A stretch of DNA of 64,000 nucleotides from Candidatus Undinarchaeota archaeon (lineage in GTDB: Archaea; SpSt-1190; JASMDC01): contig CAZFHY010000008.1 in NCBI GenBank assembly GCA_964519305.1, positions 32,001-96,000 on the forward strand. Direction: 5' to 3'. Each line of letters begins with the position of its first letter. The first letter of the stretch is position 1. The notes below the pieces were generated by a model. That model was not told where the DNA came from. It saw only the letters and a list, made by a program, of their open reading frames with translations, and made no database searches. Both the position numbers and the translations under genes were made by a program. Positions 4,002-60,230 of this stretch are shown in pieces.

Positions 4002-4166
4002 ATGCCAATCAAGAAGGAACTATTGGAAATCCTCGTCTGTCCGCTCTGTAAGAACAAGGTGAAGATCGTCGGATCGGACAAGCTTATCTGTACGAACGAT
4101 GAGTGTGGAACGATCTATCCGATAGAGGATGGCATCCCTAACATGCTACCGCCTGACCTTCGGTAG
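4002..4166 (+). CDS. trm112: Trm112 family methyltransferase activator (54 aa; below ORF-track cutoff)
   Basis: Manual translation MPIKKELLEILVCPLCKNKVKIVGSDKLICTNDECGTIYPIEDGIPNMLPPDLR fits the LLEILVCP...YPIxDGIP pattern. Confidence 0.9.
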   Translation: MPIKKELLEILVCPLCKNKVKIVGSDKLICTNDECGTIYPIEDGIPNMLPPDLR

Positions 4167-4178
4167 GAAGGGCATAGT

Positions 4179-4294
4179 GCCGGGGTGGCAGAGCGGCTAA
4201 ATGCGCGGGTCTTGAAAACCCGTGGACGCGAGTCCTCCTGGGTTCAAAGTGCAACGGGGAATCCCCCCGTCGTATGAAAGTCCCAGCCCCGGCG
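4179..4294 (+). tRNA. tRNA-Ser(TGA) with 32-nt intron at position 59/60 (4249-4280)
   Basis: Acceptor GCCGGGG/CCCCGGC, anticodon arm CGGGT-CTTGAAA-ACCCG, long variable arm, T-stem CTGGG/CCCAG; BHB TTCA/TGAA with AAG and AGT bulges. Confidence 0.92.
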
Positions 4295-4337
4295 CCTCAC
4301 CCTTCTTCGGGTCATCGGGTGATATGGAGGCACTGAC

Positions 4338-5864
4338 ATGGACATCCACGAAACTATCCTCAAGGCCCGACCGGTCGACCTGGACCTAGGTCCGAACTCG
4401 GTCCTGCTCAACGCACAGGACGCTAAAGCAATGGGCGTACGGGCCCGTGGTCGTGTTCGCATCAGCGGGGGCGGGATCATCACGACAGTGACCGCCTTCA
4501 TCACCGGTACACTGGTGAAACCTGGTGAGGTAGGCATACTCCCCGATATCGGCCAGATGCTGAACGTGAAGGATCGAACGGAGATCGCCCTTGAACCTGT
4601 CGGGCTCCCAGAGTCGACCCGCCTCATCAGGAGGAAGGTCCTTGGGGAAAAGCTCGAGAAGAGCGAGATCGCGAGCATCGTAAACGATGTGGTCGAGCGG
4701 AAGCTCACTGATATCGAGCTCTCCGCTTTCGTGGCGGGCCTCTCTTCTCATGGCATGGACATGGAAGAGACCGCGAACTTCACCATGTCGATGGTGAATA
4801 CAGGAAAGCGCATCGAGCTCAATGTAGGACGTGTTTTCGACAAGCACTCAATCGGTGGTGTCCCCGGCGACAAGACGACCCTCCTCGTGGTCCCCATCGT
4901 CGCGTCCGCAAACCTCGTCATTCCAAAGACGTCATCACGCGCCATCACCAGTGCTGCGGGCACAGCGGATGTTATGGAAGTGCTTGCCCCCATCGAGTTC
5001 GGGGCGGATAAGATCGAGGATATTATCAAGAAGGCCGGGGGCTGTCTCGTGTGGGGCGGCACCATGGACCTCCTTCCCGCTGATTCGATGCTCATCGAGA
5101 TCGAGCGACCCTTGTCCCTGGACCCTGAGTGTCTCGTGCTCGCATCGGTCCTGGGGAAGAAGAAGGCCGCAGGGAGCAATTACGTGGTCATAGATATCCC
5201 CGTGGGGAACGGCTGCAAGGTGACGAGCGATGACGAGGCACGTAATCTCGGCATCAAGTTCATCGAGCTGGGACAGCGTCTGGGCATGCAGGTGGAATGC
5301 GCGATCACGTTCGGCGGGCAGCCCGTAGGGCGGGCCGTAGGCCCTGCCCTCGAAGCGCGAGAGGCACTTGAAGCGCTCAATGGTAATTATCACGGGAGCT
5401 TTACTGAGAAGGCGACCTCGCTCGCGGGCATCCTCCTAGAGCTCGGGGGCGCTGCTGCTCACGGTAAGGGGAAAGCGCGTGCCGAGGAGATCCTCGAATC
5501 GGGCCAGGCCCTGAAGAAGTTCAAGCAGATACTCAAGCTGCAGGGCGGCAATCCCGATATCAAGCCCGAGGACATCGAGCTCGGAAAGTTCAAGCAGACC
5601 GTGAACACTCCACAAGAGGGCTATGTAACCTCGCTAAATAATGCGGTCATCAACCGGACCACGCGACTTGCTGGTGCTCCCAAGGACAAGAAGGCGGGGA
5701 TGTATCTCCATGCCAAGAAGGGACATCGGGTCGAGATGGGTGCACCTCTGTTCACCATCTACTCGTCGAGCGAGAGCAACCTGGACCGGGCCGTGAAGTA
5801 CGCCACAGGGGCCCATCCGCTCAAGGTCGAGGGCATGGTCCTCAGGCGCGTCAAGACGGGATAG
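4338..5864 (+). CDS. AMP phosphorylase (thymidine phosphorylase family, archaeal)
   Basis: DKHSIGGVPG, IPKTSSRAITSAAGTADVME and GPALEA motifs with N-terminal extension. Confidence 0.93.
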   Translation: MDIHETILKARPVDLDLGPNSVLLNAQDAKAMGVRARGRVRISGGGIITTVTAFITGTLVKPGEVGILPDIGQMLNVKDRTEIALEPVGLPESTRLIRRKVLGEKLEKSEIASIVNDVVERKLTDIELSAFVAGLSSHGMDMEETANFTMSMVNTGKRIELNVGRVFDKHSIGGVPGDKTTLLVVPIVASANLVIPKTSSRAITSAAGTADVMEVLAPIEFGADKIEDIIKKAGGCLVWGGTMDLLPADSMLIEIERPLSLDPECLVLASVLGKKKAAGSNYVVIDIPVGNGCKVTSDDEARNLGIKFIELGQRLGMQVECAITFGGQPVGRAVGPALEAREALEALNGNYHGSFTEKATSLAGILLELGGAAAHGKGKARAEEILESGQALKKFKQILKLQGGNPDIKPEDIELGKFKQTVNTPQEGYVTSLNNAVINRTTRLAGAPKDKKAGMYLHAKKGHRVEMGAPLFTIYSSSESNLDRAVKYATGAHPLKVEGMVLRRVKTG

Positions 5865-5964
5865 CTCACCAGATGTGACGATCGACCGGTAGGATACCGG
5901 TCCGGGAGCGGCCTCTCATCACTACGTAGGCGTCCAATTGATGGTCAGGGTGACCTTCGACGCC

Positions 5965-6183
5965 CTACAATCCGCCTTTGGTACCGAGGGTTAGCACGAA
6001 CGGATGGATGTTGGTTGGGACTGGGTCGGGGCCGGAATCCGTATGGTACGTGGGTGTCCCATCTTTATGGTCGGTATCACGGGTACGGGCCTCAACGGAG
6101 ATGATCTCCTTGGGCATATCGTCCGTGAGATTGGACCCGAGTATCTCTGTAAGGTCCAATCTTCGATGTCTCGTCAGTATCAT
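5965..6183 (-). CDS. Small hypothetical protein
   Basis: 72-aa ORF with a TTTAAAAA TATA-like element about 30 nt upstream; no recognisable motif. Confidence 0.35.
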   Translation of the reverse strand: MILTRHRRLDLTEILGSNLTDDMPKEIISVEARTRDTDHKDGTPTYHTDSGPDPVPTNIHPFVLTLGTKGGL

Positions 6184-6302
6184 GATGTTCGGATGCCCCG
6201 GGGAGTATGTTTTTAAATCTTACCATAAGAATATTGAACTTAATACACCTTAATTAGTGCTATGAGCCGTTATGTTGGCCCATCGCGGCATTCTTCGGGA
6301 AA

Positions 6303-7094
6303 TTAGATCTCAGCGTCATCCAGGGCCTTGGCGCAGTCACAACCACCGCCACGCTCAGCAGGTAGGCGGTCGATCACCCGGGAGAACACTTTCTTGAGGG
6401 CCTCGATGTTCTTGTTCATGAGCTCCACGACCTCTGTCGTGCCGAGGGGACTGTCAGCCATGCCTGCGGCCCAGTTCGTGACCAAGGCAAGAGAAGAGTA
6501 GCACATGGCCTTCTCCCTGGCAAGGACGACCTCGGGGACGTTCGTCATCCCGACCACATCGGCTCCCAGAACACGGATCGCGTTGATCTCTGCGGGGGTC
6601 TCGTACCGTGGGCCCTCCATGCAGGCATATGTCACCTCGGGGAACACTTCACGGTTGGTCACGTTCTTTGCCTCTTCATAGAGGAGCTTGCACATCTCCG
6701 GGCAGTAAGGCGTGGTCATGTCCACATGGAACACATGACCGTCGTCACCCTCGTAGAAGGTCGTGACGCGGTTCTTTGTGAAGTCCATGAACTGGTCGAG
6801 GACGGCCAGTGTGCCGGGGGGCATCTGATTGTGACATGATCCTACTGCGGTGGTCGACATGATGCGTTCTACACCGAGCTTGTAGAGCGCGAATGTATTG
6901 GCACGGAAGTTGATACGGTGCGGTGGGATCGAATGGCCGCTCCCATGACGCGGGAGGAACACGACATCGACGCCACCTATTGTCCCGGTACGGACCTCTT
7001 TTACGCGACCGTAGGGTGTGTCCACCTCAACGATCTTAGTGTCCTCCAATAGCGAGTATACTCCTGATCCACCTATGATACCTATGTGAGGCAT
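6303..7094 (-). CDS. mtnP: 5'-methylthioadenosine/methylthioinosine phosphorylase (MTAP family)
   Basis: IGIIGGSG, LPRHG..H.IPPH.IN.RAN, EGPRYETPAE, GMTNVPE and VTNWAAG motifs. Confidence 0.92.
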   Translation of the reverse strand: MPHIGIIGGSGVYSLLEDTKIVEVDTPYGRVKEVRTGTIGGVDVVFLPRHGSGHSIPPHRINFRANTFALYKLGVERIMSTTAVGSCHNQMPPGTLAVLDQFMDFTKNRVTTFYEGDDGHVFHVDMTTPYCPEMCKLLYEEAKNVTNREVFPEVTYACMEGPRYETPAEINAIRVLGADVVGMTNVPEVVLAREKAMCYSSLALVTNWAAGMADSPLGTTEVVELMNKNIEALKKVFSRVIDRLPAERGGGCDCAKALDDAEI

Positions 7095-7161
7095 GAACAT
7101 CACCTAATCCCCAAAAAGGGGTTCTTATCATTTAAATAAGCACGACAGGGGGGCCAGCCCT

Positions 7162-8001
7162 TTATCGAATAGCGCGTCGTGGTCCTTTCTCCAGTGCACC
7201 CTTCCCTGCGGGTATGAACCTTTGGATGTCGTCAACGGTCAATGCCTTGACCTTGTCACGGTCCTCATCCCCGATACTTGCATGGAACTTGGCGATGATA
7301 TCACGGGCCAACTGTGCGGACTTCTTGTGCCCGGGGACGATGACTACATGGCAGATGGTGTTCGCGATGACGGACTCTACGGGGCCGCCCATGATAGTAC
7401 CTTCATCCGTCATCCCGACAGCGAGCCTTAGGTCGGCGTTATGGAAGTAGTTCTTCTTCCCGTAGATCATGAAGCTTCCTTTAGTCAGGTATTCGCCCGC
7501 AGGTGCGCTCTTCGATACCTGGGAACCCAGGACCCAGAACACGTCCATCGTGGTGTATCCCATGCCCCATGCCTTCGAGTATGATGCGGTGGCCTCAGCT
7601 ACCTGATTGAGCACCTCGTCTGGCACCTCCTCGTCACCCTCCACTTTGACGGTCATGAATGGCGAACCCGCCAGGTCGGAGTGGAACACGATGTCCTTGT
7701 CGGAGGTGTGCTTCTTGATGATTATCTCGTTCGTGGTGGCGTCCCGACCGCCTATCACGAGCCTTCCGTCCATCGACTTGAACCATCTGAAGCTCTCGTA
7801 CCAGGCACGTTCTTTCTGGACCCTGAGGCGCACGGGTGCATCGACCTCGATCTCAGCAGTGCGTGCGTTCTCCAGCTTTGCACGGGTGTGGGAAATGGCG
7901 ACCTCGGCCCCCTTTATCTTCTCGCGCGACTTCTTGGCTCGTTTGTAATAATACTGTGCGTTCTCAACCGCGCTCTTGCTCAGGTCGACGGTCACGCGCA
8001 C
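7162..8001 (-). CDS. Short NFACT/RqcH-like protein (coiled coil + NFACT-R RNA-binding domain + C-terminal domain)
   Basis: ENAQYYYKRAKK, WYESFRWF, IGGRDATTNE and GEYLTKGSFMIYGKKNY motifs; GTG start inferred from TATA spacing. Confidence 0.85.
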   Translation of the reverse strand: MRVTVDLSKSAVENAQYYYKRAKKSREKIKGAEVAISHTRAKLENARTAEIEVDAPVRLRVQKERAWYESFRWFKSMDGRLVIGGRDATTNEIIIKKHTSDKDIVFHSDLAGSPFMTVKVEGDEEVPDEVLNQVAEATASYSKAWGMGYTTMDVFWVLGSQVSKSAPAGEYLTKGSFMIYGKKNYFHNADLRLAVGMTDEGTIMGGPVESVIANTICHVVIVPGHKKSAQLARDIIAKFHASIGDEDRDKVKALTVDDIQRFIPAGKGALEKGPRRAIR

Positions 8002-8053
8002 GACCGTGCCGTCCCGGTCAAACGTTATAAGGGTTGCCGACCGTCCCGGGAGC

Positions 8054-9082
8054 ATGCTCGTCCGGTTCGTTCGCGTCCATCAACAGGACACTGAACCGGT
8101 ACGCAAAGAGCTCGATGCCAAGGGCCAGGTCCTCCGCGGCATAAGGTTCCTCCACGAGGACGATTATGTGCTAATCCCCGTGAACTGTGACATCCCTGGA
8201 ATGGAGATGCTCGAACGCGACATCGAGGTCGAGCATAATCCGCGAAGCCTCTCTGAAGCGCTCAAGGGTGTTCTTTCTGATGAGCAGATGGCCATGCTCA
8301 GGACCTCGTTCGACGTCGTGGGCGACATAGCCGTCGTGGAGGTCCCCGAAGAGCTTGAGGACATGGAGGGTACCATTGGTGAGGCCCTTCTCTCGGTCAT
8401 CAAGGGCGTGCGAGTAGTGTGCCGGAAGGTGGGGCCGACTGCTGGCGAGTTCCGTGTGCGGCCTGTACGTGTCATCGCCGGTGAGCAGCGTACCACGACA
8501 GTGTACCGTGAGCATGGATGTAACTACGAGCTCGATCTGGCCAGTGTATACTTTTCTCCGAGGCTCGCGACCGAACGTGCACGTGTCGCATCACTAGTCC
8601 AACCTGGTGAGACCGTCATGGGCATGTTCGCAGGCGTCGGTCCCTTCACCATCCTCACGGCCCACGTCCAACCTGCGGTGAAAAGGGTATGGTCAGTTGA
8701 GCTGAACCCGGATGCGGTCACCTACATGAAGCGCAATATCGAACGGAACCGGGTGAAGGGGACCGTGCTCGCGGTCCAGGGGGACGTACGTGAGGTCGTC
8801 CCTGCATTGGGCCCGGCCGACAGGGTGTTCATGCCGCTGCCCAAGGGGGCCCATAAGTTCCTGGACGTCGCGATGGCGGCAGCCGCAGATGGTGCTGTCA
8901 TCCATTTCTATCACTTCACTCCCGAGGATGTGCGGTTCGAGGAAGGTGCCGCTCTCATAAAGGCCGCTGCAGAAGAGGCAGGCAAGTGTGGAGAGGTAGT
9001 GTTCCAGCGACAGGTCCGTTCCTTCTCTCCGGGCGTCTGCCAAGTAGTCGTGGACTTCCAGGTGGCCGGCCGAGCGCCGTAG
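8054..9082 (+). CDS. trm5: Trm5-family tRNA (guanine-37) methyltransferase
   Basis: FDVVGDIA, VYFSPRLATER, MFAGVGPF and ELNPDA motifs. Confidence 0.88.
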   Translation: MLVRFVRVHQQDTEPVRKELDAKGQVLRGIRFLHEDDYVLIPVNCDIPGMEMLERDIEVEHNPRSLSEALKGVLSDEQMAMLRTSFDVVGDIAVVEVPEELEDMEGTIGEALLSVIKGVRVVCRKVGPTAGEFRVRPVRVIAGEQRTTTVYREHGCNYELDLASVYFSPRLATERARVASLVQPGETVMGMFAGVGPFTILTAHVQPAVKRVWSVELNPDAVTYMKRNIERNRVKGTVLAVQGDVREVVPALGPADRVFMPLPKGAHKFLDVAMAAAADGAVIHFYHFTPEDVRFEEGAALIKAAAEEAGKCGEVVFQRQVRSFSPGVCQVVVDFQVAGRAP

Positions 9083-9127
9083 ATATTTTTTTAAATGCTA
9101 GCACTCCTCCAGAGATAATAATAACGT

Positions 9128-9248
9128 GCGGGGGTGACAGAGCTGGCCAAATGTGATGGATTCAGGGTCCATTGGTTTAGTACCTGCGCGGGTTCGAAAA
9201 CGATACCGGTCAACTCCGGTACGTTCGGAAGTCCCGTCTCCCGCACCA
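9128..9248 (+). tRNA. tRNA-Leu(CAG) with 33-nt intron at 59/60 (9199-9231); CCA encoded
   Basis: Acceptor GCGGGGG/CTCCCGC, anticodon arm ATGGA-TTCAGGG-TCCAT, long variable arm; TTCG/CGGA central helix with AAA and AGT bulges. Confidence 0.9.
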
Positions 9249-9252
9249 ATAA

Positions 9253-9326
9253 GGGCCTGTGGTCTAGCTGGTTATGACGCCGCCTTCACACGGCGGAGAT
9301 CAGGCGTTCAAATCGCCTTGGGCCCA
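9253..9326 (+). tRNA. tRNA-Val(CAC), intronless
   Basis: Acceptor GGGCCTG/TGGGCCC, anticodon arm CCGCC-TTCACAC-GGCGG, T arm AGGCG-TTCAAAT-CGCCT. Confidence 0.95.
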
Positions 9327-9329
9327 TGA

Positions 9330-9352
9330 GGGAGGGGGTTGTTCCCCCTCCC
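9330..9352 (+). terminator. GC-rich hairpin immediately after the tRNA pair
   Basis: GGGAGGGGG-TTGTT-CCCCCTCCC. Confidence 0.45.
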
Positions 9353-9437
9353 TGATACCTATCTATCAAGCCCGTGGTCCGTCCACCCACTGGGAAAGGG
9401 ATAAAAATAATGCGCTCCCGCCGCTCATGGAGGCCTC

Positions 9438-10385
9438 ATGATCGACCTCAAGCGTAAGGTACCAAAAGGTAAGGTCTTCGTGTTCAGGACCAAGGACGGC
9501 CGTGAGGTTGGAAGGGCGAGCACCCTCGCAGAGTTCCGTGACTTCCTCCGGGGTATAGACGAGGATTGCCTTCTGAACCATGTGACCCCTGAAAGGAACG
9601 ACTTCGCAGCCTGGCTCGAGGGAGCGTTCAACGAGACCGAACTCGCTAAACGGATGCGGAAAATACCCTTGGACAGGGCCCCGAAGGTAATACGGGCCCA
9701 GCTTCTACTCCTCTTTTCAAGAAGTCACAGGACGGGACGATCCATCCCGCCAATCAAGCAAGAGGATAGGGTGAAGGTGTCACCTCCTCTTGAACGTGGA
9801 ACACGAATGCCCAAAATTGAGAAACAGGGTGCCAAGCAAGTAACTATCGAAGAGAAGATCCCCGCATCCAGAAAACCGACGCCTCCCCGGAAGATCACGA
9901 ATGAGGGCCCGGCAAAGCAGACCAAGGACGTAAAGCGGAACCCTGTCCGTGGTAAACCAAAGACACATCCCGCTCGGGACTCCAAACCGCGGACCGGAGG
10001 GAAAAAACCCATCCTTGCCATGGTCCCCACCCTTGAGGCCGCTATACGCGCGGCATCGGTCAGTTCGGGTACGGGTCTCCTGAACCCACGCCCCCCACCT
10101 GGAGGGAAGCTCGATGGACTGCTCTGGGGGCTCGAGACCTATGTCCATCCAGCGGACGTGCTGGCGGACAGGGCTGGATTCGTCGGTTTCGTCCAAGCTT
10201 GCAGTGAGTACCTCTCAAATGCTGCGAGCAAGTTGACTCCCGAGGCTAGGGTCGCATTGCGTCATCTCGTGGATAACTTCCCTGATGATGCGGCCGTTGT
10301 GCACCGTGCACAGGATTACGTTGAGACCGTCCGGGCCGTCCGGAGTCTAGTCGAGCGGAGTCCAGTCATCGCCACACCTACCTGA
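9438..10385 (+). CDS. Hypothetical protein with N-terminal DUF5752-like domain and basic low-complexity linker
   Basis: ASTLAEFRDFLRGID...HV...NDFAAWL pattern; Lys/Pro-rich middle. Confidence 0.6.
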   Translation: MIDLKRKVPKGKVFVFRTKDGREVGRASTLAEFRDFLRGIDEDCLLNHVTPERNDFAAWLEGAFNETELAKRMRKIPLDRAPKVIRAQLLLLFSRSHRTGRSIPPIKQEDRVKVSPPLERGTRMPKIEKQGAKQVTIEEKIPASRKPTPPRKITNEGPAKQTKDVKRNPVRGKPKTHPARDSKPRTGGKKPILAMVPTLEAAIRAASVSSGTGLLNPRPPPGGKLDGLLWGLETYVHPADVLADRAGFVGFVQACSEYLSNAASKLTPEARVALRHLVDNFPDDAAVVHRAQDYVETVRAVRSLVERSPVIATPT

Positions 10386-10394
10386 TCATCTCGG

Positions 10395-12212
10395 TCAGGC
10401 GCGACTGAACGGGTAACCATGAACGTAGTGGTCCCGTTGATCGAGCCGCACCTTCAAGACGTCAACGGCGTTACATTCAAGACCCCCACCTGTCGACTCG
10501 GAACAGAGCGAGGCCTGACCTCCCCGGGCATGGAATATACCGGTCATCGGTTCGTTCCCGAAGGGAATGAATACCACCTCGCTCAGCATCCCTTCAGGCC
10601 CGTTGCCTGTATCGAGCAGCACCGTCGCGAAGCCGCGATCGTCCGTCCGGTAGTATCGTGGAGACGTCCCCAGTTTTCGGACCTGTATACGGGCACCAGG
10701 CAGAGGCTTCTCGTGTTCAGTTGAGAGGAGGATGACCTGGAGCGCGACGTGGCCGGGCATAGTGTTCTGGGCCAATCCTGCGAGATCAATCCGATAGAGG
10801 CTGCACTCAGTGCAGGAAATAAGGGGGACGCGCTCCGCGAGACCGCCATTCTGAAGGTACGGTAAAGGGTGATGGGAGATAACCCATTCAGCCCCGAACT
10901 CAAGGATCATCCGAAATGCCATTTCCGGTTTCTGCGGAAGGCATTCGGTCTCGATATCGGAGAATAATGCGATCTCGCGACACAAGGTTGGTGATAGGAC
11001 GACGTCCGAAGGATTCTCAAGACGCTCCAGTTCACGGACCACTGAAAGGTTCTTTTGCCAGACCTCGTTACCTTGCCCCACGTCGATCGGGAGAGACGCT
11101 ATCTGGGTGACCATAAGGAGGGCGAGCACTCCGAGACCGGCCTTCTGTCCGAATCCCATGTTGCGGGAAATATCCACTACAGCGATGACGGCGAGCGCGA
11201 CGAGCGGCATGAGAACGTTCACCACGAACTTCCACTCGAAGTAAATAGGTGAGAAGAGGAACACGAGTAATGGGACGAGCGCCCATGAGCCGAGTAGAAG
11301 TTTAGCGCTACGTCGTCCAGGGATGACGAGCAGTGCGGCCAAAGATGCCAATAGCACAGGGAATCCTATGAAGTCATGTGCCGTGAGGAACGGATTGACG
11401 GACGCCTCGGAGGGATCGCGCCATTTATCCTGGAAGTTTATGAGGTAGTGTGCGACCTCAATTGTCGTGTCCAGGCCGTTGTAGTAAAGGTATGCATTCC
11501 ATATGAGAAAGGAGAGCGCACCGCCCGCCATGATGATGCCGAGCAGCTTAAGACGGCGACGACCGTTCCCTGTCCTTGGTGCGTCAAGGACCAAGAACAC
11601 AAGGAGCACGAGGTAACATGGTGCGAAGTTGAGCTTTGTGAACATCCCCACAGCGGACAGTACGGTGCCGGCGACGAGATGTGACCTGGATCCCGCGCAC
11701 GCCCTCAGATAACAGTAGATCACTGAACTGTACAGGAAACAGAGGACCATCGGATGCAGGATCGCCAGTGAGTACGAATAATAGGAGCCATGCGTTCCAA
11801 GAAGGAGCATGGAGATGAGGCCTGCACGCTCCCCTGCAAGCTCTTTGACGAGAAGGCTGAATGCCAGGAGCGCACTTATTGACGCTATGATCACAGTTAG
11901 GTGCCCTGCCACGATCCAGTTCCCTATGATCGAGTGAACTGCGCCGATCAGCGCGAAGAACATTGGCGGATGGAGAATGAAGTTCTGGCCGAAGATGCGG
12001 GGACGACCGTCCTCCATGAGCGACCGGGCAACGAGCATGTCCCTGTACTCGTCATGGACTTTCGTCCCATCGAAGGATGTGATATCATTATCCACGATCG
12101 GAGCGAGCATGTCGAAGTCCCATGTCGAGTAGGAAAACAACCCGAAGAGAATGGCCAGGATCGTGGCAATGACCATCATAGAGGGCTTATCATCAGTGGC
12201 TCTGTTCGTCAT
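10395..12212 (-). CDS. ArnT/PMT-like GT-C membrane glycosyltransferase
   Basis: DE motif after TM1, HPPMFF, multiple TM helices, FTK motif, soluble C-terminal domain. Confidence 0.75.
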   Translation of the reverse strand: MTNRATDDKPSMMVIATILAILFGLFSYSTWDFDMLAPIVDNDITSFDGTKVHDEYRDMLVARSLMEDGRPRIFGQNFILHPPMFFALIGAVHSIIGNWIVAGHLTVIIASISALLAFSLLVKELAGERAGLISMLLLGTHGSYYSYSLAILHPMVLCFLYSSVIYCYLRACAGSRSHLVAGTVLSAVGMFTKLNFAPCYLVLLVFLVLDAPRTGNGRRRLKLLGIIMAGGALSFLIWNAYLYYNGLDTTIEVAHYLINFQDKWRDPSEASVNPFLTAHDFIGFPVLLASLAALLVIPGRRSAKLLLGSWALVPLLVFLFSPIYFEWKFVVNVLMPLVALAVIAVVDISRNMGFGQKAGLGVLALLMVTQIASLPIDVGQGNEVWQKNLSVVRELERLENPSDVVLSPTLCREIALFSDIETECLPQKPEMAFRMILEFGAEWVISHHPLPYLQNGGLAERVPLISCTECSLYRIDLAGLAQNTMPGHVALQVILLSTEHEKPLPGARIQVRKLGTSPRYYRTDDRGFATVLLDTGNGPEGMLSEVVFIPFGNEPMTGIFHARGGQASLCSESTGGGLECNAVDVLKVRLDQRDHYVHGYPFSRA

Positions 12213-12344
12213 GTACGCAACTCCTTGAGTTTATAATAATAATAGTGGTGTTTACGTTCCCGTACTGCGGTAGGATGGGTATATTTATTTAAAGCAACAT
12301 CGCCTTATTCTCACTGAATCATCAATACGTAGGAGGCTATAATT

Positions 12345-13520
12345 ATGGGTCTATTCGATAAATTACGTGGAAAGAGCGATGCACCACCGAAGCCTGGTGG
12401 TCCTCCGCCCGGTATGCCGCCTAAGCCCGGCATGGGTCCTCCAATGAAGCCCGGCATGGGCCCCCCTGGGAAGCCCGGTATGGGTCCCCCGATGAAGCCT
12501 GGCATGGGCCCCCCTGGGAAGCCCGGCATGGGTCCTCCGATGAAGCCTGGCATGGGCCCTCCTGGGAAGCCCGGCATGGGTCCTCCTGGAATGCCGCCCA
12601 AACCCGGCATGGGTCCCCCTGGAATGCCGCCCAAACCCGGCATGGGTCCCCCCGGAATGCCGCCCAAACCCGGCATGGGTCCCCCTGGAATGCCGCCCAA
12701 ACCCGGCATGGGTCCCCCCGGAATGCCGCCCAAACCCGGCATGGGTCCCCCTGGAGCTCCTCCTGGTGGGATGCCTCCGCCTCCTGGCGGGATGCCTCCG
12801 CCTCCTGGCGGGATGCCGCCTCCCGGCGGTCCTCCCCCTGGCGGGATGCCTCCTAAGCCCGGCATGATGCCCCCTGGCGGGGTCCCGGGTATGCCTCCGC
12901 CTCCCGGTGGTCCTCCCCCTGGTGGGATGCCGCCTCCTGGTGGTCCTCCCCCTGGTGGGATGCCGCCTCCCGGTGGTCCTCCCCCTGGCGGGATGCCGCC
13001 TCCCGGTATGGCTCCTCCGCCCGCGGCGCCTCCGCCGGCAGCACCTCCTCCGGCAGCACCTCCTCCGGCTGCACCACCTCCCGCGGCTCCTCCTCCTGCA
13101 GCGCCCGCTCCCAGAGCACCGGCTCCTGCGGCCAAACCCGCAGCAGCAGCAGGGCCAGCAGAGGGCGTACCGCTACCGAGCTCGGTCCCGCTGTTCATCC
13201 GCGTCGACCGATATGGTGAGGTGTCCAAGAGCATCTACTCGCTCATGGACCATGTGCAGAACCTGGATGATGTCCTTATGACCCTAAAGACGCTCAACCA
13301 GCTGGAGAACCAAGCGATCGCTATCTGGTACGGCAATGTCGAAGGGCTTCAGAAGGTCATCAAGGAGGTCCAGAAGAACTTCATGAGGCCCGAGAGCCTC
13401 GAGGAGAAGAGGACCGGAGCACGTGTCCCGAAACCATCGGAGCGGAAGAAGAGCGAAGCTATGAGCGAACTCGAGGGTTCGATCAAGAAGCTCCAAGAAG
13501 AACTCGGTAGGATGGGCTAG
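12345..13520 (+). CDS. Pro/Gly/Met-rich repeat protein with C-terminal coiled-coil domain
   Basis: About 260 aa of [14 protein letters not shown] and PPPAA repeats, then a PLFIRVDRY helical domain; TATA and GGAGG RBS upstream. Confidence 0.8.
12588..12752 (+). repeat. 33-bp coding tandem repeat, 5 copies ([11 protein letters not shown]), preceded by a 24-bp coding repeat array (about 12423-12587)
   Basis: GGAATGCCGCCCAAACCCGGCATGGGTCCCCCY starts at 12588, 12621, 12654, 12687 and 12720. Confidence 0.9.
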
Positions 13521-13551
13521 CCTTCGGGCTAGCTCTCCTTATACTCCCCTC

Positions 13552-13658
13552 GCGGGGGTGGCGGAGCGGCCAAACGCGACAGACTCAAGATCTGTTGGCT
13601 TAGCGCCTTCAAGGGTTCGAATGGGGTGAATTAGCCCCCGGATATCCCTTCCCCCGCA
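13552..13658 (+). tRNA. tRNA-Leu(CAA) with 23-nt intron at 59/60 (13622-13644)
   Basis: Acceptor GCGGGGG/CCCCCGC, anticodon arm ACAGA-CTCAAGA-TCTGT, T-stem AAGGG/CCCTT; BHB TTCG/CGGA with AAT and TAT bulges, intron helix GGGG/CCCC. Confidence 0.92.
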
Positions 13659-13695
13659 CTCAATAAGTACATTGAGCCCGACCGCTCTTAAAATC

Positions 13696-15039
13696 CTACT
13701 GTCCTTCAAGGGATAGTGCATGGTCGAGGTGCATCTTCGCCTGGTCGGTCCGACCCTGAGCCTCAGCGGCCTTGGCCGCGTTCCTCCAGAAGGTCGGGTT
13801 CTTTCCGTTCAGGACACATGCTTTATCAAAATGGTCAGAAGCCTTGTCGAACAGCCCTACGACCATGTAGACCTCACCGATGTTGTTCCATAGATCGGCA
13901 TCGCTCTCATCGAGAGCTAGAGCCTTAGAGAAGCATGAGAGCGCTTCATTGTGCCTGTTCTGTTGCAGGAACGTTATGCCGAGATCGTTCCAGGCGGACG
14001 GGTCCCGGTCATTGGTGAGCTTGAGGGCGTTCTGAAGGCAGGCCGTGGCCTGGTCGAGGTCGCCAATCTTGCCATAGACCGCACCAAGGCTCGTCCATGC
14101 CTCAGCAAGTGTCCGGTCCGCTTTGATCGCCCGTGTGAGGACCTCACGTGCTTGCTCGAGATGTCCATCCTCGAAGAACAAGGACCCGAGATTGTCAAGG
14201 GCCTCAGCGTACTGAGGGTTGATGTTAGTGGCGGCCACGAAGCAACCCCGCGCTTTCTCACGCATGTCCATGCGTTTATAGAGCAGGCCGAGGTTGTTCC
14301 ATGCGCACTCGTCCTTAGGGTCCATCCACACCGCCCAACGGAGGTAGTGTTCGGCCTCACTCAGCTCACCGAGCTTCTCGTACACCTCGCCGAGGTTGTT
14401 CCATGGTTCCTTGAGGGACGAATCGCAGGATATAGCCTTCTTGAAATGGGCGACCGCTTCGCTGACCGATGACTCGGTCCATGGTTCGGCATAGGAACGA
14501 GTGAGCTCTAGAGTGACCAGACCGAGGTTGTTCCATGCTTCCGCGTACCTCGTGTCCAGTTCGCATGCTTTTTGGAAGCACTCCTTTGCACGGGATAGCA
14601 CGTCCGAGTCGGTCGCCGTCACGAGACCGGCACGTTTCTTTACGAAGTCGAGCCTTCTAAGGGATACACCAAGGTCATTGAGCAGGAACTCGTCCTTGGG
14701 CTTCAGGTCGCATGATGACTCTAGCGCGCGGACCGCTTCCTCGAACGCAGTGACAGCTGCAGTAAGGTCTCCGGTCCTTTCGTGGGTGAGCCCGATGTTC
14801 AGCATTACCTCGCCATCCCCGGGAAGGATGTTCTTTGCAGCGGTGAGGCATCTGATTGCCTCGCTGAAGCGTCCCAGACGACGGTTGATAAGGCCCGCGA
14901 GCACCCATGCTTCACCGAGCTTCTCATCTGAACGGAGGGCCTGATTGACCGCATCGAGCGCCCCTTCGAGGTCGCGCTTGTCCAAGAGGTCCTCGGCCTT
15001 GCGCAAGGCTTCTATCCCCGGGGAGGACTCGGGACTCAT
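13696..15039 (-). CDS. Tetratricopeptide repeat protein
   Basis: Repeated AWNNLG...A...F..A units at about 34-aa spacing. Confidence 0.9.
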   Translation of the reverse strand: MSPESSPGIEALRKAEDLLDKRDLEGALDAVNQALRSDEKLGEAWVLAGLINRRLGRFSEAIRCLTAAKNILPGDGEVMLNIGLTHERTGDLTAAVTAFEEAVRALESSCDLKPKDEFLLNDLGVSLRRLDFVKKRAGLVTATDSDVLSRAKECFQKACELDTRYAEAWNNLGLVTLELTRSYAEPWTESSVSEAVAHFKKAISCDSSLKEPWNNLGEVYEKLGELSEAEHYLRWAVWMDPKDECAWNNLGLLYKRMDMREKARGCFVAATNINPQYAEALDNLGSLFFEDGHLEQAREVLTRAIKADRTLAEAWTSLGAVYGKIGDLDQATACLQNALKLTNDRDPSAWNDLGITFLQQNRHNEALSCFSKALALDESDADLWNNIGEVYMVVGLFDKASDHFDKACVLNGKNPTFWRNAAKAAEAQGRTDQAKMHLDHALSLEGQ

Positions 15040-31661: not shown

Positions 31662-32527
31662 CGGTCCGATGCCAGTGCGGGGACCCAGTTAGCACGTACA
31701 GAATCACATGTCGACCTGAGAGCAGCATCACTTATCAGGTCGCATCGCGCCACGTCGCTCAGGGACATAGGTCCGTTCGTATAGCAGATGTCGCGGTGGT
31801 ATATGTCATTGATACTGGCACAGGCCTCGTCCGGGATGCCATGCAACGCCAGACGCTCCACGCAGATATCCCGCCAGGATTCTGAGGGTACAGTCCTGCA
31901 AGCGGTCACTTCACCGGAACGTACGATGAGAGCGGTCTGACAGAACGTACCGAGCTGTGGTTCTTCTGTACCGCCACATGCCACGACGTCGCCTTGTATC
32001 AGAGCCTCGGACACGAGTGATACATCGTCAGTGTGTTGGACCGAGCGTGGATCCCCGGACGAAAAGACGCTGAAGAGACAATGTGCTCGCCAACCTGTGT
32101 CGACCACCTTGATGCAGAGGTCGACATCGGACGTCTGTGAGCCTACTTGTGCCCGACAAGCATCCAGGGTAAAACGATCACTGATGCTCTCGCAAAGCGA
32201 ACTGTCGCCCTGGCCGAGGGCTCGTGCCCAGAAACACCTATCCCGTCCCTGTTCGTCGACGATGTTCCTGCAGAACGCTTCCCCTCCCGGTAGTCCCGGT
32301 CCCGTATGGAGAAGGCAGGTCTCACGCAGCGGGTCGTTCACGATAGAGGCGCAATCGCCAGGATCGTCATCGGCTGCGGCCTGCTGGAAGATACAGAGCC
32401 CATGAGAAGGCCCCTCGGGTAGTGAACTGCAGTCCCAGGCATCCGCTCGGGCAGCGGAAGCGGCCAGGAGGATACATAGAAGCCATATACCGAGGAGGGC
32501 GATGGACGTGCGAGATGTACCCTCCAT
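31658..32527 (-). CDS. Secreted Cys-repeat protein (C..I.....RD.C repeats)
   Basis: Signal peptide; about 9 units such as CASIVNDPLRETC, CRNIVDEQGRDRC and CASINDIYHRDIC. Confidence 0.8.
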   Translation of the reverse strand: MEGTSRTSIALLGIWLLCILLAASAARADAWDCSSLPEGPSHGLCIFQQAAADDDPGDCASIVNDPLRETCLLHTGPGLPGGEAFCRNIVDEQGRDRCFWARALGQGDSSLCESISDRFTLDACRAQVGSQTSDVDLCIKVVDTGWRAHCLFSVFSSGDPRSVQHTDDVSLVSEALIQGDVVACGGTEEPQLGTFCQTALIVRSGEVTACRTVPSESWRDICVERLALHGIPDEACASINDIYHRDICYTNGPMSLSDVARCDLISDAALRSTCDSVRANWVPALASDR

Positions 32528-54049: not shown

Positions 54050-54124
54050 AGCGGGGTAGGGTAGCCTGGAGTGCCCGTCGGGCTCATAACCCGAAGATCG
54101 ATGGTTCAAATCCATCCCCCGCTA
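54050..54124 (+). tRNA. Initiator tRNA-Met(CAT), intronless
   Basis: A1-U72 acceptor AGCGGGG/CCCCGCT; anticodon arm TCGGG-CTCATAA-CCCGA with three G-C pairs; TATTTAAA upstream. Confidence 0.95.
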
Positions 54125-54158
54125 CCTAACCTACTTGATCAGTTGGAGGAATGATCGT

Positions 54159-57923: not shown

Positions 57924-58697
57924 CTAAAGGGAGTCGAGGAGCCTCGGTAGGTCCGCGATGCTCTCAAGGACGTGATCGGGGCGTATATCCGTCGTTTCGA
58001 GATCGGCCTTTTCCGTAGCACCGGTGAGCACCAGGCATGTCCTGGTACCGGCTCGGATACCTGCTAGAATGTCGGTGTCCAACCTGTCGCCGACCGTGAG
58101 GATGTGTTCGGGAGATGTTTCCAGCTCATCGAGGGCGATGTCCATGATGATGCGTTCGGGCTTTCCAACGACGAGCGGGTCTGTACCGGACGCGCGCTGG
58201 AGAGCAGCGACCTGGGCCCCGTTCCCGGGGAGGAAGCCTTTCTCATCAGGTATGGTCGGGTCGGGATTCGTTGCCACGAACAGGGCACCTTCCAGGACCT
58301 CTCTTAGCCCAGATGCCATCTTCTCATAGGAGAACGACCGGTCGAGGCCGACGACAACGGCCTCGGCCCCGTGATCGACGACCTTGATGTCCTCGAGAGC
58401 GAGCTCGTCCACAAGACCTCGCTCCCCGATGACGAGGGCACTGTGTATCCCGGTCCGGGAAAGGTGCAGTGCCGTCGCTCGTGACGAGTTGAGCACTGAA
58501 CAGCGCTCCATGTCTATACCCATGGATGAGAGCCTCTTACGATACTGGGCCCGTGAACGTGTCGAGTTGTTGGTGAGAAAAAGGACTTTCAGCCGTTCCG
58601 AGAGAGTATTGATCGCATCGATTGCCCCCGGCAGTGGAGTGTTCCCGCGGTAGACCACACCGTCGATGTCCACGATGAGGCCGGTGATGGATGCCAT
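57924..58697 (-). CDS. HAD-IIA (NagD-like) phosphatase
   Basis: DIDGV, LTNNS, ATNPD, VGKP and GDRLDTDI motifs. Confidence 0.93.
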   Translation of the reverse strand: MASITGLIVDIDGVVYRGNTPLPGAIDAINTLSERLKVLFLTNNSTRSRAQYRKRLSSMGIDMERCSVLNSSRATALHLSRTGIHSALVIGERGLVDELALEDIKVVDHGAEAVVVGLDRSFSYEKMASGLREVLEGALFVATNPDPTIPDEKGFLPGNGAQVAALQRASGTDPLVVGKPERIIMDIALDELETSPEHILTVGDRLDTDILAGIRAGTRTCLVLTGATEKADLETTDIRPDHVLESIADLPRLLDSL

Positions 58698-58702
58698 GTC
58701 CG

Positions 58703-60139
58703 CTATCCCTTAGCGACTGCCAGCGGGACCATCCGGGCGACCTTCCGGGCAAGACCTGCCGCGTTGACTGAGTCGACCACGGCAGATACGTCCTTGTATG
58801 CACCAGGGGCCTCCTCGGCAATGACCTTCGGGTTCGTGGCCATTACGGCGATACCCTTGTTGGACAGTTCTTGTTTCAGTGTGTTCCCGCTGAACTCGCG
58901 AAGTGCCTGATGTCGGCTCATTACCCTGCCCGCACCGTGACAGGTCGAACCGAAACATTCGCTCATTGCTTTTTCAGTGCCAGCAAGAAGATAGGACGCA
59001 GTGCCCATATCTCCGGGGATGATCACCGGCTGGCCAACGTCACGATAGTCGGCAGGGACCTCGCTACGTCCTGGACCGAATGCCCGGGTCGCACCCTTCC
59101 TGTGAACGCACACCTTTGACCGTGTGCCGTCCACGTCATGCTCTTCCATCTTGGCGATATTGTGGCATACGTCGTACACAAGGCGCATCTCGGGATCGCC
59201 CCCGAACACCTGCTTGAAGCTCTCCCTCACCCAGTGAGTCATGACCTGTCTGTTGCAGAACGCATAGTTGACAGCGCAGAACATCGCTGCCAGATAGTTA
59301 TCGGCCTCGCGGCTCCCAAGTGGAGCACATGCGAGCTCTTTGTCCGGGAGCGTGATCCCATATGCTCGCGATGCTGCTAGCATGATCTTCACATAATCGC
59401 TGCACACCTGATGTCCGAACCCTCGTGAACCGCAGTGGAGCATGACCATCGCCTGCCCCTCCTCCACACCGAACGCCTTGGCGGCACGCTCGTCGTACAC
59501 CTCAGCGACCTCCTGCACCTCCAGGAAGTGATTGCCTGCGCCCAGCGTCCCCAGTTGGGGAACACCGCGCTTCCGGGCCCGTACATCTACCCTGCTCGGA
59601 TCAGCTCCATCGATGCACCCGCTCTCTTCCATATGCTCAAGGTCGGCAGTGGTCCCATAGCCGTTCTCCACGGCCCACCCCGCACCTTGGACCATGACAT
59701 CCTCGAGGTGGCGTCCGCCAACGCGTAACCTGCCCTTGCTGCCTACTCCGGACGGGATGTTCTTGAAAAGCGTCGGAAGGAGGTCCTTAAGCCCGGGCCT
59801 GATCTCCTCACCGGTGAACGGCGTTGTCAGGAGACGGACACCGCAGTTGATGTCGTATCCCACGCCACCGGGCGAGACCACGCCGTCCTCGAGCGAGAAT
59901 GCAGCGACACCACCGATGGGGAACCCGTAACCCTGATGGCCGTCGGGCATGACGAATGATCTGGAGATGATCCCGGGAAGCTTGGCCACGTTCGTTGCCT
60001 GCTCCAGGGTCTTGTCCCGTCGCATGGTCGTTGCGATACTCTTGCTCCCGTACACGCGAACTGGCACTCTCATGCCATGGTCGGCGGGGATCTCCCATGT
60101 AACGTCAGAGACCTGCTCAAGTGCTCCATCCCAGGCCAT
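58703..60139 (-). CDS. rtcB: tRNA-splicing ligase RtcB
   Basis: MPDGHQGYGFPIGG, GYDINCG, GNHFLE, HCGSRG, HRKGAT, HGAGR, EEAP.AYK and terminal KG motifs. Confidence 0.97.
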   Translation of the reverse strand: MAWDGALEQVSDVTWEIPADHGMRVPVRVYGSKSIATTMRRDKTLEQATNVAKLPGIISRSFVMPDGHQGYGFPIGGVAAFSLEDGVVSPGGVGYDINCGVRLLTTPFTGEEIRPGLKDLLPTLFKNIPSGVGSKGRLRVGGRHLEDVMVQGAGWAVENGYGTTADLEHMEESGCIDGADPSRVDVRARKRGVPQLGTLGAGNHFLEVQEVAEVYDERAAKAFGVEEGQAMVMLHCGSRGFGHQVCSDYVKIMLAASRAYGITLPDKELACAPLGSREADNYLAAMFCAVNYAFCNRQVMTHWVRESFKQVFGGDPEMRLVYDVCHNIAKMEEHDVDGTRSKVCVHRKGATRAFGPGRSEVPADYRDVGQPVIIPGDMGTASYLLAGTEKAMSECFGSTCHGAGRVMSRHQALREFSGNTLKQELSNKGIAVMATNPKVIAEEAPGAYKDVSAVVDSVNAAGLARKVARMVPLAVAKG

Positions 60140-60230
60140 GATGCGGCACCTGCCCCCCAAACCTATAAAGGTTATCGAGCGCGGCCCCGCGCCATCACGC
60201 TTTTATGTATTCCCCGCAAAGCTGTCGACG

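Follow-up and report, generated by a model that had tools for sequence, protein, structure and literature searches.

Three tRNA genes interrupted in the T loop

We analyzed a 64-kb stretch of DNA (positions 32,001 to 96,000 of contig CAZFHY010000008.1, assembly GCA_964519305.1; hereafter the window) from a marine archaeon filed with the Candidatus Undinarchaeota. The window contains five tRNA genes, all on the plus strand, and three of them are interrupted between positions 59 and 60 of the T loop. tRNA-Ser(TGA) consists of exon 1 (4179-4248), an intron of 32 nt (4249-4280) and exon 2 (4281-4296); tRNA-Leu(CAG), whose CCA end is encoded, of exon 1 (9128-9198), an intron of 33 nt (9199-9231) and exon 2 (9232-9248); and tRNA-Leu(CAA) of exon 1 (13552-13621), an intron of 23 nt (13622-13644) and exon 2 (13645-13659). 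Up to the 5' strand of the T stem all three are normal, with acceptor stem, D arm and anticodon arm followed by a long variable arm; then come TTCRAA, the 32, 33 or 23 extra bases, and finally a T and the 3' strands of the T stem and of the acceptor stem. An earlier reading of the bare sequence (the original prediction) had placed these inserts at 59/60, and its coordinates and lengths were exact. It had also described the two remaining genes as intronless, and both ARAGORN and Rfam agree: tRNA-Val(CAC) lies at 9253-9326, 4 nt 3' of tRNA-Leu(CAG) (Rfam, 59 bits), and the initiator tRNA-Met(CAT) at 54050-54126 (62.5 bits).

In the three interrupted genes the junctions lie in a motif of the bulge-helix-bulge (BHB) type, in which the T stem, 5 bp long, forms the outer helix. 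The central helix of 4 bp pairs T-loop positions 54-57 with intron bases -6 to -3, and reads TTCA/TGAA in Ser(TGA); in the two Leu genes it is TTCG/CGGA and includes one G-T pair. The 5' bulge consists of positions 58 and 59 and the first intron base, the 3' bulge of the last two intron bases and T60; both are 3 nt long, with the cut placed behind the second base of each. Ser(TGA) and Leu(CAA), whose intron bodies fold from end to end, have the strict motif, and Leu(CAG), in which a single unpaired T faces the 5' bulge, has the relaxed one. A segment-by-segment reading thus bore out the proposal that TTCR supplies the central helix of a motif that is near-perfect, relaxed and near-perfect in Ser, Leu(CAG) and Leu(CAA), respectively. 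When the insert is removed in silico, every gene with a 59/60 intron, including those outside the window described below, yields a canonical cloverleaf with a 7-nt T loop that is called by ARAGORN. The intron bodies themselves are unrelated, as had been noted: an all-against-all comparison found only 7-nt words in common, and a search of the whole genome found no further copies of them.

It had been suggested that standard tRNA scanners would mis-call such genes, and two tRNA finders did miss them. ARAGORN reported only two tRNAs in the window, Val(CAC) and Met(CAT), and Rfam at its gathering score reported Met(CAT) alone. With permissive filters Rfam added Val(CAC) and three partial matches at 4179-4244, 9128-9190 and 13552-13611, with scores of 24.6, 19.0 and 21.6 bits that fall under the 29-bit cut-off; each of these spans the 5' two thirds of the tRNA and then stops. 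The interrupted genes are not peculiar to one assembly. The sequence is the same in independent assemblies of four DNA runs from two studies, whose contigs show neither a variant letter at the three genes nor an intron-free allele of any of them.

Two other features adjoin these tRNA genes. Just upstream of tRNA-Leu(CAA), a long frame at 12346-13520 on the plus strand encodes a very proline-rich protein with tandem PGMGPP-like and PPGG-like repeats. At 9332-9361 a G+C-rich hairpin abuts the 3' side of tRNA-Val(CAC); it is probably a terminator-like stem, and its match to the Rfam family Ocean-VII is weak and below the cut-off (21.2 compared with 53.5 bits).

Non-canonical introns across the genome and the phylum

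The source assembly (G000) comprises 3.63 Mb in 42 contigs, referred to here as C1, C6 and so on, with a completeness of 99.83%; the window lies on contig 8. For a census of the whole genome we used our own pipeline, in which sites found by a BHB motif scan are spliced in silico and the products are passed to ARAGORN. The strict scan returned 149,040 candidate sites in G000 and 149,506 in the reversed, uncomplemented genome. The motif alone is therefore uninformative, and we took as the test whether cutting yields a tRNA. After splicing, a tRNA spanned the junction at 11 sites in the real genome and at none in the reversed control. Of these 11, three are T-loop introns, in Ser(TGA), Leu(CAA) and Gln(TTG), and four are canonical introns, in Asp, Cys, Ala(TGC) and Ile(TAT); two more are mis-splices at the Tyr locus, and the last two are artefacts bordering intact tRNAs. 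With relaxed criteria the scan returned 5,355,306 candidates and, after splicing, 371 calls; once those overlapping the 38 unspliced ARAGORN calls had been removed, it added Leu(CAG). Spliced "tRNAs" at window positions 58264-58331 (Asp), C10:19658 (Pyl) and C1:400792 (Ala) were dropped on structure, as were unspliced "Tyr" calls at C6:104608 and C15:8251, which fold poorly.

Our own tally for G000 is 48 tRNA genes, which represent 46 anticodons and two extra copies of Cys(GCA). Five of the 48 have an intron at 59/60, namely the three of the window and, outside it, Leu(TAA) and Gln(TTG). tRNA-Gln(TTG), a class I tRNA, has an intron of 31 nt (C1:59011-59041) with a strict motif and a 7-bp inner helix. 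The intron of tRNA-Leu(TAA) measures 39 nt (C18:30152-30190); its motif is relaxed, the 5' site lying in an internal loop, and it has a central helix of four Watson-Crick pairs and a proper 3' bulge, and its spliced form is a perfect cloverleaf. A sixth non-canonical intron, 32 nt long, follows position 30 (30/31) in the anticodon stem of the class I tRNA-Ile(GAT) (C1:443066-443172, plus strand), a gene that ARAGORN -i miscalls as Thr(CGT). Canonical 37/38 introns occur in nine genes. Each gene split at 59/60 carries one intron only, and by the tally of 46 anticodons these five are the sole genes for their anticodons. The remaining long-armed tRNAs, two for Leu (TAG and GAG) and three for Ser (CGA, GCT and GGA), have ordinary T arms.

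The census also turned up a tRNA-Ile(TAT) with a canonical 28-nt intron (C27:3547-3648, minus strand). Only two CAT tRNAs were found in G000, the initiator and one elongator, and since Ile(TAT) is present, AUA may be read in this genome by a UAU tRNA instead of a modified CAU tRNA. Spliced Ile(TAT) calls were also obtained in three small-genome relatives (L076, L081 and L083).

We then compared 17 genomes of the phylum: G000, a second species of the same genus (G001, 3.8 Mb) and 15 others of 0.6-1.2 Mb. All six non-canonical introns, the five at 59/60 and that of Ile(GAT) at 30/31, are present in G001. Between the two species Ser(TGA), Leu(CAG) and Leu(TAA) show no exon difference, and their introns differ at 4, 3 and 5 positions, respectively. 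Leu(CAA) has 2 exon differences and 7 intron differences, among them a change from G-C to A-T on both sides of a stem pair, and Gln(TTG) and Ile(GAT) show no difference in exon or intron. Judged from this single species pair, the pattern is that of introns under the constraint expected of working introns.

No T-loop intron was seen in the small-genome relatives in which the same gene was found. Ser(TGA) was called unspliced in six of these genomes, Gln(TTG) in ten, Leu(CAA) in seven and Leu(CAG) in seven. Since the introns occur in G000 and G001 and in none of these small-genome relatives, we regard them as gains of this genus. The original prediction had called the pattern lineage-specific, and within the phylum it is: the introns are common to G000 and G001 only, and Ser(TGA), Gln(TTG), Leu(CAA) and Leu(CAG) have no T-loop intron wherever they were found among the 15 other genomes. 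In two genomes of one small-genome genus (L069 in G005 and L073 in G007) Leu(CAA) was not called unspliced; here the scan locates an insert, 45 or 33 nt long, in the D arm. G000 and G001 would themselves form a large-genome branch (3.6-3.8 Mb) in a group known for tiny genomes, unless they are misfiled. Our literature search on the tRNA introns of Undinarchaeota found no paper.

Splicing enzymes and the nature of the introns

The genome encodes the enzymes by which such introns could be removed. A single gene for the splicing endonuclease EndA (C6:63800-64378) specifies a protein of 193 aa with the Pfam N- and C-terminal domains, 95% identical to that of a marine metagenome-assembled genome labelled Candidatus Undinarchaeales. 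Searches of G000 for a second subunit found none, whether with Pfam PF01974 and PF02778, with the NCBIfam beta models NF007085 and NF007086, by tblastn, or with our own EndA profile, which was derived from nine relatives and searched with every filter disabled (--max); the next best match to this profile had an E-value of 0.16. The only weak pair from tblastn (C10:109822-110180) was rejected, as it reads like an unrelated protein. The closest structures by sequence are the Methanocaldococcus jannaschii homotetramer (1a79, E 4e-29) and the Nanoarchaeum equitans alpha subunit (3iey_A, E 4e-26). Compared with 1a79, EndA has six extra residues, rich in Arg and Lys, directly before the His that aligns with the catalytic His.

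This basic insert aligns with residues 90-98 of the N. equitans alpha loop (3iey_A). According to passages of PMC3488258, the N. equitans loop contains K93, K94, K96 and R97 within residues 90-98 and is expected to widen the substrate range. Passages of PMC5829648 name the loop L3 and describe one-unit enzymes that carry it in several lineages of the DPANN archaea and in Hadesarchaea, together with more disrupted tRNA genes. Six of the nine relatives that we aligned, another Undinarchaeota record included, have the basic loop, which is therefore older than the intron gains. The endonuclease architecture, which had been named as a point to be settled, therefore turns out to be one 193-aa one-unit gene with a Nanoarchaeum-type loop. 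Because a single one-unit gene was found, the predicted enzyme is most likely a homotetramer.

The RNA ligase RtcB had been located in the window at 58703-60139. RtcB is indeed present, and its extent needed correction: the 485-aa frame runs from 58703 to 60160 on the minus strand and matches Pfam PF01139 over the full length of the profile (E 7e-177). An archease is encoded on contig 1.

Taken together, the anatomy of the genes, the enzymes present and the pattern of conservation make it highly probable, in our judgement, that these are working tRNA genes whose introns are of the ordinary archaeal kind, spliced by proteins, and sit at a non-canonical position that is already known, 59/60. The precursor would keep its T stem paired while positions T54-57 pair with four bases near the 3' end of the intron. 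The splice sites would then lie in the 3-nt bulges that flank the central helix, where the single EndA would cut both, and RtcB and archease would join the halves to give a normal T loop. On the evidence of the phylum, the 59/60 introns would have been gained in the large-genome genus after its split from the small-genome members.

Several points weigh against this interpretation. Splicing of these genes is predicted from the DNA, and no sequencing run on record as RNA was found to contain window positions 4100-13700. The predicted tetramer rests only on the finding of one gene in an assembly of 42 contigs. The motifs of Leu(TAA) and Leu(CAG) are relaxed, and the link of the L3 loop to the cutting of relaxed motifs is, for one-unit enzymes, a correlation in the relevant passages of PMC5829648. 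Our tally of 48 genes excludes two poor "Tyr" calls and those ARAGORN -i calls with introns of more than about 100 nt, which were not checked singly. That the case for splicing comes from DNA would also suit a different view, in which the split genes are decaying pseudogenes or assembly artefacts that are never spliced. We consider this very improbable: the genes are the only ones for their anticodons, their exons are conserved while the introns diverge between the two species, four independently assembled runs give the same sequence, and endonuclease, RtcB and archease are all encoded.

If they are spliced introns, their mechanism is ordinary and archaeal, their position is known, and the pairing of host and enzyme matches the published pattern as far as passages of PMC5829648 describe it. 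Position 59/60 is listed as a known non-canonical position in passages of PMC4090602. The closest parallels differ in instructive ways. The 59/60 introns of Thermoproteales share with those of G000 the position, a motif built on the T stem and T loop, the short length and, presumably, removal by endonuclease and ligase. Their hosts are thermophilic crenarchaea, however, and G000 comes from a marine archaeon filed with Undinarchaeota in which each split gene carries one intron. The G000 introns, moreover, have no common sequence and show no sign of the intron transposition reported for Thermoproteales, and the G000 enzyme is one-unit rather than an alpha2-beta2 enzyme with the crenarchaeal loop.

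A second parallel is ARMAN-2 (Candidatus Micrarchaeum), a DPANN-affiliated host with a T-loop intron in its pre-tRNA-Cys and an epsilon2 endonuclease that also has an added basic loop near the active site (PMC3239211 and PMC3488258). For ARMAN-2, cutting of the relaxed T-loop intron of this pre-tRNA has been demonstrated in vitro (PMC3488258). The ARMAN-2 enzyme differs in having three units and an ASL loop of its own that is important, while the G000 enzyme has one unit and only the Nanoarchaeum-type loop. The N. equitans enzyme, the source of that comparison, is of the alpha-beta type and in this respect unlike the one-unit enzyme of G000. The one-unit (alpha4-type) L3 enzymes that PMC5829648 describes resemble it in having a single gene, N- and C-terminal domains, a basic insert before the catalytic His, and a host with more disrupted tRNA genes.

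Class II tRNAs, attachment sites and the arrival of T-loop introns

All three interrupted genes of the window encode class II tRNAs, which have a long variable arm, and the original prediction held that all long-armed tRNAs carry the intron and that class I tRNAs have none. Neither statement survives outside the five window genes. In the whole genome five of nine class II genes are without the intron, while the class I genes Gln(TTG) and Ile(GAT) have, respectively, a strict 31-nt intron at 59/60 and the intron at 30/31. The weaker claim of a class II bias has nominal support. Equal frequencies in the two classes were not seen genome-wide, as 59/60 introns occur in 4/9 class II and 1/39 class I genes (one-sided p=0.003; p=0.017 without Leu TAA). 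The excess nevertheless leans on the three genes that prompted the idea: among the genes outside the window the counts are 1/6 and 1/37 (p=0.26).

To look beyond the phylum we used a signature pattern consisting of a T stem ending in GGG, TTCRAA, 12-42 bases, YGRR, two bases and TCCC. It occurs in 128 of 401 archaeal genomes, compared with about 26 for a reversed control pattern; within the phylum, real cases were confined to G000 and G001. We examined 33 matches at 30 loci from 30 genomes, and in 20 of them ARAGORN called a tRNA after splicing. Three of these 20 are Ser or Leu by name, the rest being Lys, Gly, Ala, Arg, Thr, Asp and others. On hand reading, 4 of the 33 matches are not real and about 8 of the other 29 are long-armed. 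This is close to the share expected, since class II tRNAs make up 9 of about 31 G000 tRNAs with a T stem ending in GGG, and no general class II preference is seen. At one of the loci (L107, G263:C1) two 85-nt tRNAs with long variable arms, with the anticodons GAT and GTC, lie ~1.25 kb apart and both have T-loop introns.

Introns at 59/60 are thus not a class II feature as such; a class II preference confined to this genus may exist. Non-canonical introns at 59/60 and 30/31 were catalogued first in Crenarchaeota/Thermoproteales; PMC4090602 lists them with reference to Sugahara 2008 and Marck & Grosjean 2003. The view that 59/60 is best known from Thermoproteales is now dated, given the signature in 128 of the 401 archaeal genomes sampled.

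The T arm and 3' end of tRNA genes had also been put forward as an integration target of mobile elements, and the genome bears this out. Three of the four tyrosine-recombinase genes in G000 lie just 3' of tRNA genes without a T-loop intron, namely Leu(GAG), Glu(TTC) and one Cys(GCA), and each of these has a direct repeat of the segment from the T loop to the 3' end, the repeats beginning in the T loop. The Leu(GAG) element (C29:16442-18133) has its tyrosine recombinase on C29 and an orphan repeat at C30:17330-17352; the repeat is 23 nt long and starts at T-loop position 56. Near the orphan Leu fragment on C30 no integrase was found among 12 frames searched with Pfam, only a DDE transposase 3 kb off. 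In G001 (locus L090), Leu(GAG) runs straight into the sequence found behind the orphan repeat of contig 30 in G000; there is thus an insertion in G000 and an empty site in G001. Behind Glu(TTC) (C6:5699-7202, minus strand) a 21-nt repeat with one mismatch lies 48 nt downstream and is followed by the integrase frame. An integrase frame likewise adjoins one of the three Cys(GCA) genes (C17:10284-11691), and a 19-nt copy of its 3' end at C1:120-138, at the start of contig 1, is probably the other end of the element.

One of the introns resembles such a repeat. At its start the intron of Leu(TAA) contains an in-register but worn copy of the gene's 3' exon, which matches at 13 of 15 bases with one gap, a score reached by 24 of 5000 shuffles of the intron body. 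The 3' exon of Leu(TAA) is, moreover, the attachment repeat of Leu(GAG) from position 60 on. In the other four 59/60 introns of G000 no significant exon copy was found (1623-1997 of 5000 shuffles reach the score), and none was found among the 33 matches from other genomes, save in one that is not a real intron. Integrases adjoin 0/5 genes with a 59/60 intron and 3/43 others, a comparison without statistical power.

This resemblance permits another reading of Leu(TAA) itself, by which the gene has no intron, its first and slightly odd 3' end works, and what lies 39 nt downstream as a perfect copy is a repeat left over from an attachment site. ARAGORN does call an 87-nt tRNA from the unspliced gene, Rfam scores it at 40.2 bits, which is over the cut-off, and Glu(TTC) shows just such a silent repeat. 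An unspliced Leu(TAA) would, however, need an acceptor stem of 8 bp, a single linker base and a T stem of 4 bp, where the spliced form is a perfect cloverleaf, and among the 42 Rfam matches above the cut-off in G000 it scores lowest. Between G000 and G001 the exons and the downstream copy are unchanged, whereas five differences, including one in the first copy, fall in the 39 nt that separate them. The central helix, in addition, consists of four Watson-Crick pairs, and the 3' bulge is a proper one. We think it unlikely that Leu(TAA) is intronless and treat it as a gene with a 59/60 intron.

A site-specific element could leave such an intron behind as a scar. By attaching to the segment from the T loop to the 3' end, an element would leave a second copy of that segment; the element would then be mostly lost, and the tRNA would switch to the downstream copy, a switch made possible by the T stem and the self-complementary TTCGAA of the T loop, which between them already provide two of the motif's three helices. 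The stretch between the copies, decaying first copy included, would become the intron. The element at Leu(GAG), the silent repeat behind Glu(TTC) and the Leu(TAA) intron with its worn 3' exon could represent successive stages of this process. We hold it unlikely, but worth stating, that some 59/60 introns are scars of this kind.

For Leu(TAA), a single case, an origin from a duplicated attachment segment fits what its sequence suggests, and is akin to the integration model proposed for the tRNA-Thr of Caldiarchaeum in passages of PMC3293823. There too a rebuilt tRNA gene has an integrase next to it, and the end of the tRNA recurs in direct repeats. As far as those passages go, the Caldiarchaeum repeat is a 5' fragment and the outcome a split gene, whereas in G000 a worn 3'-exon copy lies inside a T-loop intron, and G000 also has an element that is absent from its sister species G001. 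The same paper cites the idea of Randau and Soll that introns shield attachment sites; the G000 introns resemble what that idea, as cited there, calls for in that they lie in the segment used for attachment.

These observations bear on whether the class II excess is genuine. A family of elements in this genus could attach to the T-loop-to-3'-end segment of Leu (and Ser) genes, and the introns could be scars of such events or have been kept because they split the attachment site. The genome-wide excess (4/9 and 1/39, p=0.003) is in keeping with this, as is the count among the five Leu genes, of which three are interrupted by the intron and another, Leu(GAG), bears the element that is inserted in G000 and missing in G001. 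The identity of Leu(TAA) exon 2 with the Leu(GAG) repeat from position 60 on points in the same direction. Against it, three of the four class II cases inspired the idea and the held-out genes give p=0.26; Gln(TTG), with its intron, is class I, as are the other two integrase-flanked tRNAs, Glu and Cys; and elsewhere only 3 of 20 calls are Ser or Leu by name, and the about 8 of 29 long-armed matches are near expectation. On balance we find the combination of a real class II excess with scarred or protected attachment sites improbable.

The introns at 59/60 in this genus have consequences at several levels. In practice, neither ARAGORN nor Rfam at its gathering score sees five essential tRNAs of G000, and a sixth, Ile(GAT), is reported as Thr; because split genes are missed in this way, the tRNA counts used for judging such assemblies are too low. 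Being common to two sister species and absent where the same gene was found in the rest of the phylum, the introns form a clean and recent set of gains. How such introns arrive is still open, according to a preprint of 2026 on the tRNA introns of Asgard archaea (10.64898/2026.10.13.758758). Combined with an attachment site that is active in this segment, the worn exon copy in Leu(TAA) would offer one concrete and testable route of intron arrival.

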